This document shows positions 2,238 through 43,452 of a DNA stretch of 64,000 nt, piece by piece; positions within the stretch are counted from its first letter, which is position 1; the number at the start of each line of letters is the position of its first letter. The translations under genes were made by a program, and so were the position numbers. The notes under the pieces are model-generated. The model was not told the DNA's origin and did no database searches. It saw only the letters and a program-made list of their open reading frames with translations. Location: sequence record MK327943.1; one strand, given 5' to 3'. This DNA comes from Escherichia phage vB_EcoM_G53.

Positions 2238-3200
2238 TTATTTCCAAGTCAGTTCGCAGGTCAGTTGAAGAAGCATATACATAACATGTAATTCAATATT
2301 ACTTGCTAATCCATGAAACTTATTATTTTCGCCTGCAATTTCATAAAGCGAAATAATACTTTTACCTGGTGCAACTTTGTCATAACACTCAGAAACTAAT
2401 TTATCGATGAACCATGAATAATCAGCGGCATATTTTGGAGCTAACGCACGAAGCTGTTTGATATCTTTATTTTTCATTGCTTCTATGACATCATCTACCG
2501 TGCCACGATCATTGGTTACAATCGACAAAATACCTGCATCAAGAACACCTTTAGACGAGTACTGGTCTAATTGACCAATTGTACGTCGAAAGTCCGGGAA
2601 GTTCTTTTTAACCAGAGCTGCAACAACTTTCATATCAGCGATTTCGATATTTTCGTTCTTACAGATTTCAACCATGCGATGAATCATTTTCTTCATCATT
2701 GAGATTTTATCTTCTTCGGTTGGACGTCCGAATTCGATAACTCGACAACGACTACGTAACGGTTCGATAATTCCATCGATGTTGTTGGCAGTAATAATAA
2801 TAGAACAGTTACTAGAGAATTCTTCCATGAATGTACGAAGGTGACGTTGTGATTCAGCGAGGCCACTACGGTCAAATTCATCAATAACAATAACTTTAGG
2901 CTTGCCTTCCATTGAGACTGAACGAGCGAATGCAGTTAACGGACCGCGCACAAAATCAATCTTACAATCAGAACCGTTGACGAACATCATTTCGGCATTG
3001 ATATCATTACATAATGCTTTTGCTACGGTTGTTTTACCGGTACCAGGAGATGGAGAGTGTAAAATAATATGAGGAAGTTTTCCTTTAGATACTAAAGACT
3101 TGAATGTTTCATGGTCATACGCAGGCAGAATACATTCGTCAATGGAAGAAGGACGATATTTCTGTTCTAGAATGTGTTCTTTGGAATTGATAGTAATCAT
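2238..3200 (-). CDS. 44: Clamp loader large subunit gp44 (AAA+ ATPase)
   Basis: 320 aa; Walker [11 protein letters not shown] and DEFD Walker B; strong match to T4 gp44. Confidence 0.93.
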
Positions 3201-3226
3201 GTAATTTTCCTCATTATCATTAAACT

Positions 3227-3242
3227 GGAGGATTTCTCCTCC
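3227..3242 (-). promoter_or_regulatory. Intercistronic hairpin GGAGGA-TTTC-TCCTCC between genes 45 and 44
   Basis: Perfect 6-bp inverted repeat with 4-nt loop in the 75-nt gap upstream of the gene 44 SD; followed on the minus strand by TTTAATGATAATGAGGAAAATTACATG. Confidence 0.45.
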
Positions 3243-3275
3243 ATAATCGTATCACAATAAACGTAAAGCTTTGAC

Positions 3276-3962
3276 TTAGAAGTCGTGAGTAGAATCGGCT
3301 TCCATCGCAATAACATAACTTACTTGAGAGCTTTCAAACTTAGCTGCAACTTTATCACCAGCTCCCCACAACATTACTTTATAGTTACCTGGCTGGATTT
3401 TCATATTAGCCATATTGATTACGAAGTTAAAGTTATTAGAACCGTCATAATCAGTAAGAGTCAAAGAATACTTAGGACGAGTTAGTCCGGAATCTTCAAC
3501 TTTATTATAGCCATTGATAACAATTTTACCATCTTTATTTGTAATAGCAATTGTATCAATCTGAAGACCACGTGAAACTCGAAGCAATTGTTGAAGGTCT
3601 TCGGCTTTAATTTCAGTAATCACAGAAGCCACTGGGAATTGAATTGGCTTATTAGGAAAAACAATGGTGCTCTTGTCGGCAGCAGGCCAATAAACTGTGG
3701 AACGTGTATCTGCAATTTTAATATTGCCATCAGTATGCATTGAAATTTCGGCATCATCAGACACTAGACTCAAAATGCTTAAGAAGCTATTCAAATCATA
3801 AAGTGCTACGTCAAAATCAATTTCATCAGAGATATTTGCTTCCGCATAAGTGGTGCCATTAACTGCACGAGTCATAATAAATTTACCTTGACTCAGCAGA
3901 ATGCCAGAGTTAATAGAGGCAAAGTTTTTCAGAATAGCGATAGTATCTTTAGACAGTTTCAT
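3276..3962 (-). CDS. 45: Sliding clamp gp45
   Basis: 228 aa MKLSKDTIAILKNFASINSGILL... closely matches T4 gp45; start at the second ATG, which has SD AAAGGAAATAAA. Confidence 0.94.
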   Translation of the reverse strand: MKLSKDTIAILKNFASINSGILLSQGKFIMTRAVNGTTYAEANISDEIDFDVALYDLNSFLSILSLVSDDAEISMHTDGNIKIADTRSTVYWPAADKSTIVFPNKPIQFPVASVITEIKAEDLQQLLRVSRGLQIDTIAITNKDGKIVINGYNKVEDSGLTRPKYSLTLTDYDGSNNFNFVINMANMKIQPGNYKVMLWGAGDKVAAKFESSQVSYVIAMEADSTHDF

Positions 3963-30012: not shown

Positions 30013-30342
30013 TTATACTCTAGGCTTTTGAGCTTGTTTGGTATTGGATTCCCATGCGGCTTTGGTAATTTTGTTAGCGGCATAACCAAAGGCATTAGAT
30101 AGAACACCTTTAGAGTTGAATACATCCAATCCAATAAGTACACCGGCTGTGTTAAATTTAGGAGCAAAGTACGCATTAGTTTTAGAAAGAACTTTTTTCA
30201 ATTCAGGGTCTTGAACCAAGCCATCAAAAACGCCTTTACTATTTACTTTGTATGTTACTTTGGGATTTTTACCTTCTTCGATAGCAGCTTTCTGTTCCGC
30301 AGATAATGTAACTTCAGTGATAAACTCCTGATATGTTTTCAT
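30013..30342 (-). CDS. Internal protein (IP) candidate with capsid-targeting N-terminus
   Basis: 109 aa starting MKTYQEFITE, the conserved N-terminal capsid-targeting sequence of T4 internal proteins. Confidence 0.75.
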   Translation of the reverse strand: MKTYQEFITEVTLSAEQKAAIEEGKNPKVTYKVNSKGVFDGLVQDPELKKVLSKTNAYFAPKFNTAGVLIGLDVFNSKGVLSNAFGYAANKITKAAWESNTKQAQKPRV

Positions 30343-30367: not shown

Positions 30368-30682
30368 TTATTCTTTAGGGAAGTTTTTAGAGTATGCATC
30401 ATAAAGTTTATTACCAATACGACGGAAGACTTTAGCTGCAAAACGGTTTTCAGGGTTTTTAATCATGATTTGCATCATGTAAGTTCCTGCATCCGAAAGA
30501 GCTTCTTCATAGTACCCATTAATTTCTTTAAGAGTCCTACGTTTACCGCCAGGACCATCAACAGTAATTTTCCATTTACCTGTAGAAGTGCGGCTCGGTG
30601 GCTCAACTTGTTCAATCCAAATATAACCACCTTCAACGCGTTGGTTGGCGGATTCTGCAATAAATTCTTTATACGTTTTCAT
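30368..30682 (-). CDS. Internal protein (IP) candidate with capsid-targeting N-terminus
   Basis: 104 aa starting MKTYKEFIAE; body unrelated to the neighbouring IP. Confidence 0.75.
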   Translation of the reverse strand: MKTYKEFIAESANQRVEGGYIWIEQVEPPSRTSTGKWKITVDGPGGKRRTLKEINGYYEEALSDAGTYMMQIMIKNPENRFAAKVFRRIGNKLYDAYSKNFPKE

Positions 30683-30746: not shown

Positions 30747-31427
30747 TTAAGCTTTACCGCCAGAAATAATTCCGAAGTTGTTAAAATCGTATCCAATATC
30801 GTCAACATCTACTTTAGGGCTTGCTACAACATAAGCAATTTCACTACGTTTTGCATAGGTGTTGATTTCTTTACCATCGCCACCTAAGAAAGAATACCCA
30901 TTACGTTTTAATGAGCCAAAGTCTTCCGCATCACCAATGAAAGCTTTAACTTTAAATTTGGGGTCTTTGGCATCTGCTTCAATGATAAATTCTTGATACA
31001 TTTTCATTTTTTCCTTAGTAAATTGATTACCATAGTATTTGTACCAAGTCGGACGTTGAGCAATTTTTTCATCTAAGCGTGCTTGACTTATCGCAATGGA
31101 CGCTTCGGACGGGACGTAATTATTACGAAATTCGGCAGGAATGTCGGAAATATCCTGGACAGTCGTGTCCTTGATTTTGAAACCGCGTTTCAAGCATTCA
31201 GCGATTAGCTCGATTTGTCGTAAACGTAAAAATTCGAGTTTGTCGTAAAAGAATGTTACGTGACCTGTGCCTAAGATAAATGTTGGAGAGATTTTAAAAT
31301 CCTTTACACGTTTACCGTTTTGAACATGTTTACGGACTGCACCAAATACGCGTGGTAATTCACGATACTCAGCCATAAGATGTTGGTCGGACAGTTCAGA
31401 AACAAGTGTTAAATTGATACGAGTCAT
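30747..31427 (-). CDS. denV: Endonuclease V (DenV, pyrimidine-dimer glycosylase) with an in-frame C-terminal extension that is an IP-like ORF
   Basis: First ~140 aa [34 protein letters not shown]... match T4 DenV; the frame then continues with no stop through [18 protein letters not shown]... to 30747. An internal ATG at 31007 has SD TAAGGAAAAA. Confidence 0.8.
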
Positions 31428-31485: not shown

Positions 31486-31767
31486 CTATTTTTCTGAAGC
31501 GCCTGAAATATATTTTTCAAGACGTTGTTTCATTAGCGAGCCGTTCTTAGCGATTTCTTCCGGTTTATCGCACATACGTAACAAGGCTTCAAGCTTAGCG
31601 ATATCGCTGGTACGTTCAAATTTGCGAGTATCTATTTTACTAGCAAGTTCAGAAATACGTGCTAATAGACTTTCAGCTTCAACCAAAGCTGCACCTAGCT
31701 TAGTTGCAAATGTGTCGGTAGCTTCGTTAAGAATAGATTCTGATAAAAATTCACTATATGTTTTCAT
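31486..31767 (-). CDS. Internal protein (IP) candidate with capsid-targeting N-terminus
   Basis: 93 aa starting [10 protein letters not shown]; ATG overlaps the lysozyme stop (ATGA). Confidence 0.7.
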
Positions 31768-39164: not shown

Positions 39165-39668
39165 TCATTTATTTTTAATTTTGCAAATTTTTCCAGCTTC
39201 AATGCACGCAGCATAGATGATGCTCTGGGCAATTTTATTGCTAGTGGACCTTGCAATCACACTAAGAACAATTTCTTTTTCTTCACCACCACATCCCCAG
39301 CTATTTTGCCCATGTGTACCTTTAACTACGGCTGAAACTTCAACAGAACGTCCACCATCAGAAGTCTTAACATCCACAACCCAATCACCGTCTTTCTCAT
39401 TAACCTGTGGTTTATCCCAAGAAATACTAATATATGATTCACCGTCAATAGAAGTCGCCGGGTTTTTCTCTACAGTAAGACCTTCGCTTTCTAACCATTC
39501 AATAGTATTTGAGCATAAATCTGTAGAACATCTCATCGGAAAGCGGCATGATTTTTCACCTTTAGATGCAGCATCATACATCTTTTCCAAAATACGCTTT
39601 TGTACATTTTTAAAAACAACGTCACGCGATTCTTCAGATTTTTTATTCAGTTCAGTATAAAGACTCAT
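39165..39668 (-). CDS. Hypothetical protein (167 aa)
   Basis: ORF with several Cys (CRFPMRCSTDLC). Confidence 0.55.
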   Translation of the reverse strand: MSLYTELNKKSEESRDVVFKNVQKRILEKMYDAASKGEKSCRFPMRCSTDLCSNTIEWLESEGLTVEKNPATSIDGESYISISWDKPQVNEKDGDWVVDVKTSDGGRSVEVSAVVKGTHGQNSWGCGGEEKEIVLSVIARSTSNKIAQSIIYAACIEAGKICKIKNK

Positions 39669-39805
39669 AATGTTTTCCTCATTTGTTTTGATAGGTCTAT
39701 AGTATCATACCTCAAGGAGAAGTAAACAACTTTGTGAAAAATTTATCTGCCCTAGATGCCCGAAAGCCCCTTCCTATGGTTGGGGCTTAAGTGATTGTAA
39801 CTTAA

Positions 39806-40432
39806 TTATTTACGGGTTTTTGCATACTGAGCAGCGTCAGCAGCCAAACGACCTGCTTGTCGAAGTTTTTCTTTAATCTCATCATGAAGTGGTTGAGTAT
39901 ACTTCAAACCTTCGATAGTCAAATAAAGACGATAAAGGTCTGGGGTATCAAGGTTGTTGATATGTTGGCCATTACGAAGAATATTGAATTCACGAACGAG
40001 TGAAGACGTATCAGATTCAATATCACGAACAAGCGAAGATAGTTGTTTATATTTTTTTTCCAGGCTAGAAGTATCAAACTTAAGAGCAGGAGCTTTAGGA
40101 GTTGCTTTTACTTCCGGCTTAGGCTCAGGTTTTGCTACTGCTTTAGGGGTCGCAGGTTTAGGAGTGGTAGGAGCAGGTTTCACTTTAGGCGAACCAGATT
40201 TAGCAGAAACACCACCACTAACAATATCTTTGAATGCTTTAGAAGCTCTGTAATATTCTTTTTGGCTGGAAGTGTCGATACCGTACATGGCTTGAACGTT
40301 TTTGAAAAACTCTGTACTAGTTTTTGTACCAGAAATAGCATCGTAAGCAGCTTGCCATTTCTCTTTTGTCATACGTACACCGGCTTCGGTGATTACTTCC
40401 GTTTCGGCTAAAAATTCATTAAAAGTATACAT
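39806..40432 (-). CDS. Internal protein I-like protein (divergent capsid-targeting N-terminus, Pro/Lys-rich linker)
   Basis: 208 aa starting MYTFNEFLAETE; middle PKVKPAPTTPKPATPKAVAKPEPKPEVKATPKAPA; sits immediately downstream of the tRNA region, as ipI does in T4. Confidence 0.6.
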   Translation of the reverse strand: MYTFNEFLAETEVITEAGVRMTKEKWQAAYDAISGTKTSTEFFKNVQAMYGIDTSSQKEYYRASKAFKDIVSGGVSAKSGSPKVKPAPTTPKPATPKAVAKPEPKPEVKATPKAPALKFDTSSLEKKYKQLSSLVRDIESDTSSLVREFNILRNGQHINNLDTPDLYRLYLTIEGLKYTQPLHDEIKEKLRQAGRLAADAAQYAKTRK

Positions 40433-40467
40433 TGATGGTCCTTAGAAAGTAGGTTTATTGTTTACTA

Positions 40468-40475
40468 TATTTATA
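40468..40475 (-). promoter_or_regulatory. Late promoter TATAAATA upstream of the ipI-like gene
   Basis: Minus-sense TGTATAAATATAG about 35 nt upstream of the start; SD TAAGGA. Confidence 0.5.
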
Positions 40476-40505
40476 CAAAAAAGCCCCGACCTTTCGGAAG
40501 GGGCT
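40476..40505 (-). terminator. Rho-independent terminator-like hairpin AGCCCC-12 nt-GGGGCT followed by T6
   Basis: Minus-sense AGCCCCTTCCGAAAGGTCGGGGCTTTTTTG; terminates transcripts reading through the tRNA region. Confidence 0.6.
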
Positions 40506-40807
40506 ATATACCTTGTCGGGGTCCCACCTGCTAAGGCAAGTGTTTGTACGAAACGCCGGGATTCGAACCCGGTTATTAAGCAGTTGACGCTACTCAATAT
40601 TTTTAAAAGGCCATATCTCGACCATATCCGAACGTTCCGTCAAAAACGCTACTCGGCTTACGACAAAGATATTTCCTCGAATCGATAATTCTGTGCGCCG
40701 TTTCTGCTGTGATGTAAGGGGATATTAACAAATCGTAAAGATTTATTAAGACCAGTCCTTACTCAGGGAACATCAGTCCGACGTCTTGCCGGTAGCGACC
40801 CGGCTTC

Positions 40808-41152
40808 TTATTTTGGCATATCGTCAATTTGCTCTCGACGCCGACGCCATAGATTAATCGCTTCATAGGCACATTCTGCGTTTGGTATATGACGGCAATA
40901 ATATAATGATTCGCGTTTCTGGAACCGATGTTGCAACGGGATTTCGTTTAAAAGGTCTTTACGGTCAAAGTATTCAAAACTAGTTAACCCAGAACGGTTT
41001 TTAAGAAACTTCCAATGTCCGAATTCATTTTGAAAATAAACATAATCAGCATGCTGATACAGCGAATTAATTAACCTATCGGAAATAACTGTTTCACGTT
41101 CGTTAAAATAAAACGTTAAGTCATGAACTACCAGATAAATATTGCCTTTCAT
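40808..41152 (-). CDS. Hypothetical protein adjacent to the tRNA genes
   Basis: 114 aa from MKGNIYLVVHDL with SD GAGGAAAAT; the track ORF start would overlap tRNA-Arg. Confidence 0.55.
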   Translation of the reverse strand: MKGNIYLVVHDLTFYFNERETVISDRLINSLYQHADYVYFQNEFGHWKFLKNRSGLTSFEYFDRKDLLNEIPLQHRFQKRESLYYCRHIPNAECAYEAINLWRRRREQIDDMPK

Positions 41153-41170
41153 ATTTTCCTCACTTGAAGT

Positions 41171-41247
<77 letters not shown>

Positions 41248-41253
41248 AATATA

Positions 41254-41327
41254 TGACCCAGACCAGATTCGAACTGGTAACCTTTCCCTTATGAGGGGAC
41301 TGCTGCTAACCATTGAGCTACAGGGCC
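41254..41327 (-). tRNA. tRNA with anticodon CAU (Met or Ile2-type)
   Basis: Manual fold: T arm ACCAG-UUCGAAU-CUGGU, anticodon loop CUCAUAA, acceptor GGCCCUG/CUGGGUC with one U-U mismatch, 3-bp D stem; 6 nt from tRNA-Arg. Confidence 0.6.
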
Positions 41328-42832: not shown

Positions 42833-43096
42833 TTAAATTCCAGCTTCGCGTTTAACATAATCGACATAAGCTTGGATAGCTTTCTTGCTGGTAATTTTTA
42901 CCTGGCCACGACCATTGCCTTCTTTAGAGTTTTTCTTAACAACTACATTACCATCTTTAACACCCCATACATGGACATAAGTACCGATGTTTCGGTCGTA
43001 GAACATTGCATGGTCGTTGTTGTAAGAGAATGATTCGTAGTTCTCCGACAGAGTAGAAGATTGAGATTCAGCGATAAATTCTTTATACGTTTTCAT
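42833..43096 (-). CDS. Internal protein (IP) candidate with capsid-targeting N-terminus
   Basis: 87 aa starting MKTYKEFIAESQ. Confidence 0.75.
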   Translation of the reverse strand: MKTYKEFIAESQSSTLSENYESFSYNNDHAMFYDRNIGTYVHVWGVKDGNVVVKKNSKEGNGRGQVKITSKKAIQAYVDYVKREAGI

Positions 43097-43164: not shown

Positions 43165-43452
43165 TTACAGAAGAGTTTTTGCAATAATTTTAAGCTGAGC
43201 TACAGAAATATGCTTAGCTTTAAACAGTGCGGTCTCTTCAGCCGGAGAGATAACAATAGTAGCGCCATCTTTCTTAGCAGACCATCCATCCCCTAAGTAA
43301 ACAGTACCTTTTACTTCTTCGCCATCAACCAGACTAATCATCGGTTTACCCTCACGTCCTTTATTTGCTTTAATAACTTCGGAAGTAAGGGTTGCTTCGG
43401 TCAGAGTAGAAACGTTAGCAACAGGTGATATAAATTCTTTATAGGTTTTCAT
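43165..43452 (-). CDS. Internal protein (IP) candidate with capsid-targeting N-terminus
   Basis: 95 aa starting MKTYKEFISPVANVSTLTEA. Confidence 0.7.
   Translation of the reverse strand: MKTYKEFISPVANVSTLTEATLTSEVIKANKGREGKPMISLVDGEEVKGTVYLGDGWSAKKDGATIVISPAEETALFKAKHISVAQLKIIAKTLL

Follow-up and report, generated by a model that had tools for sequence, protein, structure and literature searches.

The window analysed here, a stretch of 64,000 nucleotides (nt) from Escherichia phage vB_EcoM_G53 (MK327943.1), belongs to a Mosigvirus of the RB69/JS09 type. On its minus strand, at 39806..40432, it contains an open reading frame (ORF) of 208 amino acids (aa) plus stop codon, which matches PHROG 2280, a group annotated as 'unknown function', and which by its sequence is a candidate internal head protein. 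We consider that it probably represents a new family of T4-type internal proteins (Ips) that would be expressed late from a third Ip locus, docked onto the prohead core, trimmed and injected. The initial annotation of the gene had called it consistent with packaging into heads. Packaging is the best explanation for the conservation of the leader motif, the exchange of domains behind it, the protease site and the promoter, and it is from these features that we infer it.

New in this analysis are the family, which is unannotated in all records inspected, its locus, and an architecture of two domains plus a basic tether that comes with a natural series of divergent leaders. Calling Ips by their leader is already established practice, and nothing reported here overturns the current understanding of these proteins.

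Leader peptide

The ORF begins with an ATG three codons past an in-frame stop, so that its start codon is unambiguous, and a Shine-Dalgarno sequence, AAGGA, is located 6 nt 5' of it (40439..40443, minus strand as is the whole neighbourhood of the gene). The product starts with MYTFNEFLAETE, and both its length and its N-terminus are as initially annotated; the intact N-terminal peptide reads MYTFNEFLAETEVITEAGVR. In T4, packaging requires no more of IPIII than its first 10 residues. Genetic data assign targeting mainly to residues 4 and 7 and processing to residues 8 and 10, and the prohead protease cuts after the Glu of an L/I-x-E motif (PMC9026906). According to the T4 record, the leaders are MKTYQEFIAE/A in IPII and IPIII and MKTFKEFTSTTTPVSTITE/A in IPI, where the slash marks the cleavage site. 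Codons 1–10 of the G53 gene (40403..40432) encode MYTFNEFLAE, a CTS-like leader (CTS, capsid-targeting sequence) that ends in the protease motif L-A-E and is identical to the IPII/IPIII leader at six of ten positions and to the first ten residues of IPI at five. F4 (as in MKTFKEF of T4 IPI), F7, L8 and E10 are all present. Codons 11–16 (40385..40402) encode a variable spacer, TEVITE, with a second candidate protease site, I-T-E/A, which reproduces the tripeptide and the P1' residue of the cleavage site of T4 IPI (...STITE/ATL). The N-terminus, MYTFNEFLAE/TEVITE/AG, thus has both an IPII/III-type site (L-A-E10/T) and an IPI-type site (I-T-E16/A). Of the features that define the Ip class, it shows the MKTYQEFIAE-like leader with determinants at positions 4 and 7 and a predicted L/I-x-E protease motif at the leader end.

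The leader also stands out within the window. The first ten residues of all ATG-initiated ORFs of at least 40 codons (n = 676) were scored with BLOSUM62 against the five canonical CTSs of the window. With a score of 30.0 the ORF ranked seventh; the six higher ones, all MKTY... ORFs of the Ip type, scored between 37.8 and 44.4, and the next ORF reached 20.0. A regular expression for the leader, run over the six reading frames of the window, gave no off-target matches. From these comparisons it is well supported that the N-terminus is a plausible CTS.

The initial annotation had spoken of a degenerate CTS on the product of a gene at the ipI position. A CTS remains plausible, given the rank of the leader and the retention of its key residues; a relative of IPI the protein is not. 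BLASTP against T4 IPI, IPII and IPIII aligned the leader only, the alignment with IPI covering residues 1–17 (E 0.27). Affiliation with the IPI family proper (phrog_4363) was likewise rejected, since the protein shares no homology with mature IPI and belongs to phrog_2280. Known Ips share nothing but the leader (PMC12373910), and for this reason the missing similarity to IPI-family proteins does not speak against membership in the class.

The leader is conserved among the homologs of the protein. The pattern M-x-x-[FY]-x-[ED]-[FI]-[LIV]-x-E was found in nine genera (Mosig-, Dhaka-, Karam-, Kanagawa-, Winkler-, Kagamiyama-, Teguna-, Marfa- and Jiaodavirus), with one residue fewer between Met1 and the aromatic residue in the Jiaodavirus copy (phage PKO111, MKFKDFLTE). 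The leader reads MKTYNEFLNE in JS98, MLNFKEFITE in PG7, MLNFNEFLLE in CIP9, MLNFNEFITE in Kosakonia phage 305, MLKFKEFISE in CBH8, EcS1 and Vettismorki, MLQYNEFLKE in fHe-Yen9-01 and MLKFKDILTE in Marfa; the clusters P0022, P0025 and P0026 carry MITFNEFLNE, MLKFNEFLAE and MNFKEFLKE, respectively. The consensus is MLxFNEFLxE, with F7 conserved in at least 90%, and by these sequences the family has a leader variant of its own. In 10 of 10 representatives, residue 10 (residue 9 in PKO111) is the final Glu of an L/I-x-E site. The 5–8 residues past the leader are variable and gapped across the family, and a second L/I-x-E/A site at residues 14–18 is present in four of the nine other members scanned. 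Conserved leader residues are encoded by differing synonymous codons across the genera (TTT/TTC; TTA/TTG/ATC/ATT/CTC), which argues that the leader peptide, and not a DNA recombination site, is under selection. Whether the leader co-varies with the canonical CTS of the same genome was discarded as a test, because PG7 has Ips with MKTYQEF/MKTYNEF and yet MLNFKEF on its family member.

Six further ORFs with near-canonical leaders are encoded on the minus strand, giving seven leader-bearing ORFs in the window, three of which are annotated as internal head or virion proteins in PHROGs. Two of the six lie at the ipI locus (43165–43452 and 42833–43096) and four are clustered at the ipII/ipIII locus beside gene e (31486–31767, 30747–31007, 30368–30682 and 30013–30342). 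Their leaders read MKTY[KQS]EF..., in one case MKMYQEF..., and they affiliate with phrog_4363, 3499, 2667, 3966 and 13302. The matches of three ORFs are to PHROGs annotated as internal head or virion protein. For the remaining three, matches were limited to phrog_3966 or phrog_13302 ('unknown function'), and by their leaders these ORFs are likely to be unannotated Ips too. Additional Ip genes of T-even phages have been identified solely by the leader before (Repoila et al. 1994, as cited in PMC12373910).

Domain architecture and family distribution

Behind the leader, two helical domains joined by a disordered tract were predicted by an AlphaFold2 model built on a 15-sequence family alignment (mean predicted local distance difference test score, pLDDT, 74). 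The C-terminal domain is modelled confidently and the N-terminal domain with moderate confidence; residues 74–113 are disordered (pLDDT about 31–36). The small N-terminal domain (residues 19–73; 40214..40378; RMTKxKWQ...YGIxTS...AFK) comprises helices at residues 23–31, 39–50 and 57–72 (pLDDT 80–87) and is conserved in the homologs from Karam-, Marfa-, Kanagawa- and Jiaodavirus. It is followed by a basic tract rich in Pro, Ala and Lys (residues 77–116; 40085..40204; pLDDT about 31–36), which consists of 11 Pro, 8 Ala and 9 Lys among its residues and has a net charge of +7. The tract contains PKVKPAPTTPKPATPKAVAKPEPKPEVKATPKAPA and agrees with the Pro/Lys-rich linker noted initially. Among 19 full-length members its composition is kept (net charge +3 to +9), whereas its sequence and length (14–45 aa) are not. 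The C-terminal three-helix domain (residues 117–208; 39809..40084; FDTSxxxKKYxQL...NNLxTPxLYxLY...YTQP...) has helices at residues 122–153, 164–177 and 180–206 (pLDDT above 90); within the close family no other part is as well conserved. The calculated pI of all 19 full-length members analysed is 9.5–9.9 once the first 10 residues are taken off. Judged by its charge, the tract may ride on packaged DNA; it could equally be a plain flexible spacer.

Homology searches gave little beyond the family itself. Pfam yielded nothing (SIX1_SD, E 0.098, was below the cut-off), NCBIfam only Pro-rich low-complexity matches (TonB, PspC), and the PDB sequence profile search no match. In Foldseek searches no PDB structure reached E ≤ 0.001 (best E 2.9), and BFVD yielded nothing beyond the family of the protein itself. 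The fold is uninformative, and a functional inference from it was rejected. Membership among TonB or proline-rich surface proteins was also rejected, since the scores were 16.8 against a cut-off of 315 bits (TonB) and 18.6 against 500 (PspC) and came from the low-complexity residues ~53–122.

These matches are nonetheless what would speak for an external virion component, that is, a capsid decoration or a neck or tail accessory in which the Pro/Ala/Lys tract serves as an extended surface linker. Exposed or spanning proteins typically have extended linkers rich in Pro, the sole matches were such regions in TonB and PspC, a weak PHROG match to 'virion structural protein' (E 0.12) was obtained in the low-complexity tract only, and the late promoter described below would fit as well. 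However, all these matches are compositional, no Ig-like, fibre or other decoration-type fold was found, and such a location would not account for a conserved CTS-like leader that ends in a protease site. We regard an external location as very improbable.

The family is small: a search of 1.84 billion representatives yielded only 13 clusters at 50% identity. Homologs were retrieved from 138 phage records with the G53 protein as query and from 189 with the PG7 homolog, and every homolog record whose annotation was listed calls the protein 'hypothetical'. Near-identical copies (98–99.5%) occur in dozens of Mosigvirus Escherichia phages including JS09, HX01, ST0 and p000v. In every locus inspected (JS98, PG7, Marfa, fHe-Yen9-01, CIP9, CBH8, Kosakonia phage 305, EcS1, Vettismorki, PKO111 and ValerieMcCarty01, VMC01) the homolog closely follows the final tRNA or stable RNA and precedes e.8/e.6. 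The gene is absent from T4 and phiR1-RT, split in RB69 and truncated in VMC01, where only a 58-aa remnant is found (2501–2677 of the stretch examined). It thereby shows the patchy distribution of a dispensable accessory gene in a hyperplastic region that is a mark of the Ip class.

Either domain may be exchanged behind the leader. CIP9, PKO111 and P0023 have the same leader, N-terminal domain and linker with a different C-terminal domain, and P0026 carries a third type of C-terminal domain. Conversely, the common C-terminal domain is found behind another N-terminal domain in P0025 and P0027. The alternative C-terminal domain (...IPGLKV..GSGEL..AIDK..PLLRDN..LYK...ELS.QT.LSY) was seen in CIP9 (3001–3627 of the stretch examined) and in PKO111 (2501–3085 of the stretch examined), where the ORF has no annotation in the record.

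This distribution bears on a second alternative, in which the protein is an accessory of the prohead core or scaffold, comparable to T4 gp67 and gp68 or to IPIII in its morphogenetic role, and acts in head assembly or DNA condensation and not as an injected effector. The leader and the late promoter would be explained in the same way. In the model, the long helices of the C-terminal domain resemble generic helical hairpins or bundles like those of scaffolding proteins, the basic tract could neutralise DNA charge, and head assembly is slowed in T4 mutants of IPIII (PMC9026906). Yet the conserved head module does not include the gene, which T4 and phiR1-RT lack and which is found truncated or split in some evidently viable phages. 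The C-terminal domain of the protein is swapped between genera, and internal L/I-x-E sites, by which true core proteins are fragmented, are not conserved. A role confined to the core is unlikely on this evidence.

Promoter, locus and virion data

An exact TATAAATA, the motif of a T4-type late promoter, is present on the minus strand at 40468..40475, 35 nt 5' of the ATG and at the very position given initially. The motif is not enriched in the AT-rich window (8 observed versus 7.9 expected) and hence carries weight only through its position and conservation. At 10 of 10 homolog loci, NATAAATA ([T/G/C]ATAAATA) is found 27–36 nt 5' of the start codon, and the late motif is exact in the window, JS98, PG7, fHe-Yen9-01 and PKO111. 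The segment just 5' of the motif folds into a GC-rich hairpin (−15.5 to −23.0 kcal/mol) at 7 of the 10 loci. In the window it is an intrinsic-terminator-like hairpin, GCCCC...GGGGC, followed by six T (40477..40504; called at 40499–40484 plus T-run by the terminator scan), which would insulate the gene from upstream early and tRNA transcription. Among the six CTS genes of the window that were checked, only this one has a late motif within 160 nt upstream. Two others are preceded by early-type promoters (GTTTAC...TATAAT/TATAGT), as are T4 ipI, ipII and ipIII. The gene is putatively expressed late from its own TATAAATA promoter.

With respect to the locus, the initial annotation had placed the gene immediately downstream of the tRNA region, where ipI was said to sit in T4. 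The order of transcription in T4 is 57A, 57B, ipI, tRNA.4, tRNA.3, tRNA.2, eight tRNAs with segB, rnaD, rnaC, a gap of 284 nt, e.8 ... e, ipIII and ipII (T4 feature table). There ipI is located 5' of the tRNA genes, and the annotations of JS09 and RB69 give the same order. The corresponding slot in the window is occupied by the 95-aa ORF at 43165–43452 (minus strand), the mature part of which is nearly identical to T4 IPI and which affiliates with phrog_4363 ('internal virion protein'); by its sequence it is the true IPI ortholog of the window, and the second leader-bearing ORF of this locus (42833–43096) follows it. The equation with ipI was thus mistaken: on the T4, RB69 and JS09 maps the gene lies downstream of rnaC and not between 57B and tRNA.4, the position of the IPI family. 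The interval between rnaC and e.8 is a probable third Ip locus, distinct from the ipI locus and the ipII/ipIII locus.

The gene begins ~70 nt past rnaC, in a slot that is empty in T4 (the 284-nt gap between rnaC and e.8). The species 1 stable RNA, rnaC (40547..40685; 97.8% identity over 139 nt to T4 rnaC), is the final element of the tRNA/stable-RNA cluster, and the counterpart of T4 rnaD (species 2) is encoded at 40693–40811 with 86% identity. Rfam holds no family for the RNA-like region 5' of the gene; cmscan was blind to both RNAs, which were identified by BLASTN to T4. Both are located directly 3' of ORF150c, itself after tRNA-Arg (41171–41247), next to which tRNA-Met is found (41254–41327). 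The RNA rnaC ends in a tRNA-like T-arm (GGTTCGAATCC), and its near-identity between T4 and Mosigvirus is striking for RNAs of unknown function. For the RB69ORF150c homolog, the longest mechanically called ORF (40808–41200, TTG start at 41200) overlaps tRNA-Arg; translation probably begins at an internal ATG (MKGNIYLVV..., about 41152), in agreement with the 114-aa annotation in JS09. On the other side of the gene, a hairpin AAGCCCC...GGGGCTT (39764..39788) is found just 3' of the stop codon. It was not called by the terminator scan and has no clear T-run after its stem; it is possibly a transcript end or a stabiliser.

Between the gene and the next one (39165–39668), at ~39700–39760 on the minus strand, a sequence cacaaagttgtttac...gatactat plus a stem-loop was observed that is nearly the same as that upstream of T4 ipI. 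It looks like one of the early-promoter/stem-loop (PeSL) cassettes proposed for modular shuffling in T4-type genomes, and would then mark the gene as a separately bounded module.

Such boundaries suggest a third alternative, a late but unpackaged protein (assembly chaperone, lysis-timing or DNA-associated factor) whose leader is a relic of modular shuffling of ip cassettes. The gene lies between module boundaries, with the terminator upstream and the PeSL-like early promoter cassette downstream, and recombination at cassettes of this type is documented (PMC2839356, PMC4122927). Moreover, none of the other six leaders in the window is further from the canonical form, and proteomic support for packaging was not found. 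A relic would decay, however, and yet in nine genera no stretch of the N-terminus is better conserved than the ten-residue motif, specifically its positions 4, 7, 8 and 10. The peptide is conserved although its codons change synonymously, and it is kept when either flanking domain is exchanged. We assign a low probability to an unpackaged protein.

Mass spectrometry of purified virions of ValerieMcCarty03/04 (Jiaodavirus) revealed abundant peptides of canonical MKTY... internal virion proteins, so that the logic of the CTS holds outside T4. No homolog of the G53 protein was seen in the parts of these data examined, and the copy in the related phage VMC01 is a remnant of 58 aa. The particle proteome of phiR1-RT has been published, and the genome of this phage lacks the gene. 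In the paper on ECLFM1 (Karamvirus) the 'hypothetical' bands are not named. The literature searched contained nothing usable on the proteomes of Mosigvirus, Dhakavirus or Kosakonia phages or on Mosigvirus RNA-seq.

Several observations weigh against packaging and injection. No published virion proteome was found for a phage with a full-length homolog. Compared with the canonical MKTY of the six other Ip-type genes of the genome, the leader is altered at three positions (K2 to Y, Y4 to F, Q/K5 to N). Most genera have ML[KN]F... here, and binding to the core could be weaker or not occur; P0027 has Gly as residue 10. Instead of the exact late consensus, GATAAATA or CATAAATA is present at six of the ten loci. 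In addition, the mature part showed no similarity to any Ip or protein of known function in Pfam, PDB, Foldseek and BLASTP searches, and two domains plus a linker of 40 aa are atypical for described Ips.

As a packaged internal protein, the product would be made late from its own TATAAATA, with the terminator shielding the gene from upstream early and tRNA transcription; both elements are observed in the sequence, and their activity is presumed. The match to the T4 IPIII and IPI leaders at the critical residues suggests that MYTFNEFLAE attaches the protein to the scaffolding core in the assembling prohead. A homolog of the prohead protease gp21 would then cut after Glu10 (L-A-E/T), Glu16 (I-T-E/A) or both, as predicted from the motifs, and release a basic protein of about 21–22 kDa with a pI of about 9.6. 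Its two helical domains and the flexible basic Pro/Ala/Lys tract, the latter plausibly extended along the packaged DNA, would be kept in the head and ejected with the DNA. After injection the protein would most likely act on a host factor. According to recent work, Ip1–3 of T4 specifically inhibit different GmrSD type IV restriction enzymes (PMC12373910), and by analogy an anti-defence role with the exchangeable C-terminal domain as specificity module appears most likely, speculative as it is. A more elaborate version is offered tentatively: the third Ip locus after the tRNAs and rnaC may encode a modular injected protein composed of the leader, the N-terminal domain, a histone-tail-like tether riding on the DNA and an exchangeable C-terminal effector of at least three types, and hence a DNA-tethered anti-defence effector. 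Its targets could be other than the GmrSD enzymes hit by Ip1–3.

Significance and comparison with known systems

Host defences encounter injected internal proteins before any other phage protein, and the inhibition of GmrSD by the T4 Ips has renewed the interest in uncharacterised members of the class (PMC12373910). The family described here is kept in position and leader in nine genera, including phages of Klebsiella, Enterobacter and E. coli that are discussed as candidates for phage therapy. If its members are packaged, a third Ip locus is added, together with a modular candidate anti-defence effector in which the swapped C-terminal domains point to a specificity module. The divergent leaders (ML[KN]F..., MYTF...) would then form a naturally diverse set of working CTSs, useful for deriving the rules of scaffold-core recognition and for engineering protein packaging. 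If they are not packaged, the limits of calling Ips by the leader alone are exposed.

The closest parallel in position is found in RB69, where ORF149c and the overlapping ORF148c (NC_004928, 73428–73990) occupy the same slot after ORF150c/rnaC and before e.8. They also share the layout of a leader, an N-terminal domain (MYNIDTSS), a short basic linker and a helical C-terminal domain (FDTKKY...). In contrast to the G53 protein, ORF149c has a canonical leader (MKTYAEFLTEAA), and the RB69 sequences are highly diverged (tblastn E 0.64). The two ORFs are apparently one gene split by a frameshift; either the gene is a pseudogene or the reference record contains a sequencing error.

In composition, the linker resembles the Pro-rich spacers of TonB and pneumococcal PspC, to which it is not homologous. 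A similar composition is presumably also found in the Ala/Pro/Lys-rich tails of histone H1-type proteins.

The six MKTY... ORFs of the window resemble the gene in that unrelated mature parts follow a shared leader on the same strand and within the same ~13-kb region. They encode single-domain proteins of 86–109 aa with near-canonical leaders at the two classical Ip loci, whereas the protein described here is twice as long, modular, encoded at a third locus and equipped with a divergent leader.

With T4 IPI, IPII and IPIII it shares the leader of 10 residues with an aromatic residue at position 4, Phe7, an aliphatic residue at position 8 and Glu10, and with IPI also the I-T-E/A site besides the L/I-x-E motif. 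It is similar in size to IPIII (208 versus 193 aa), and both mature proteins are basic. Like the T4 ip genes, its gene is a non-core gene of patchy distribution in a hyperplastic region near the tRNAs and e. The T4 Ips are packaged, processed by gp21 and injected, while the same steps are predicted for the G53 protein from its sequence. At residue 2 the leader has Y or L, in contrast to the K of the T4 Ips. Its locus follows rnaC and is neither between 57B and tRNA.4 nor next to e, and its gene has a dedicated consensus late promoter behind a terminator, unlike T4 ipI, ipII and ipIII and other CTS genes checked in the window, with their GTTTAC-type sequences resembling early promoters. Lastly, two swappable domains joined by a Pro/Ala/Lys linker of 40 aa distinguish this protein from the Ips of T4.

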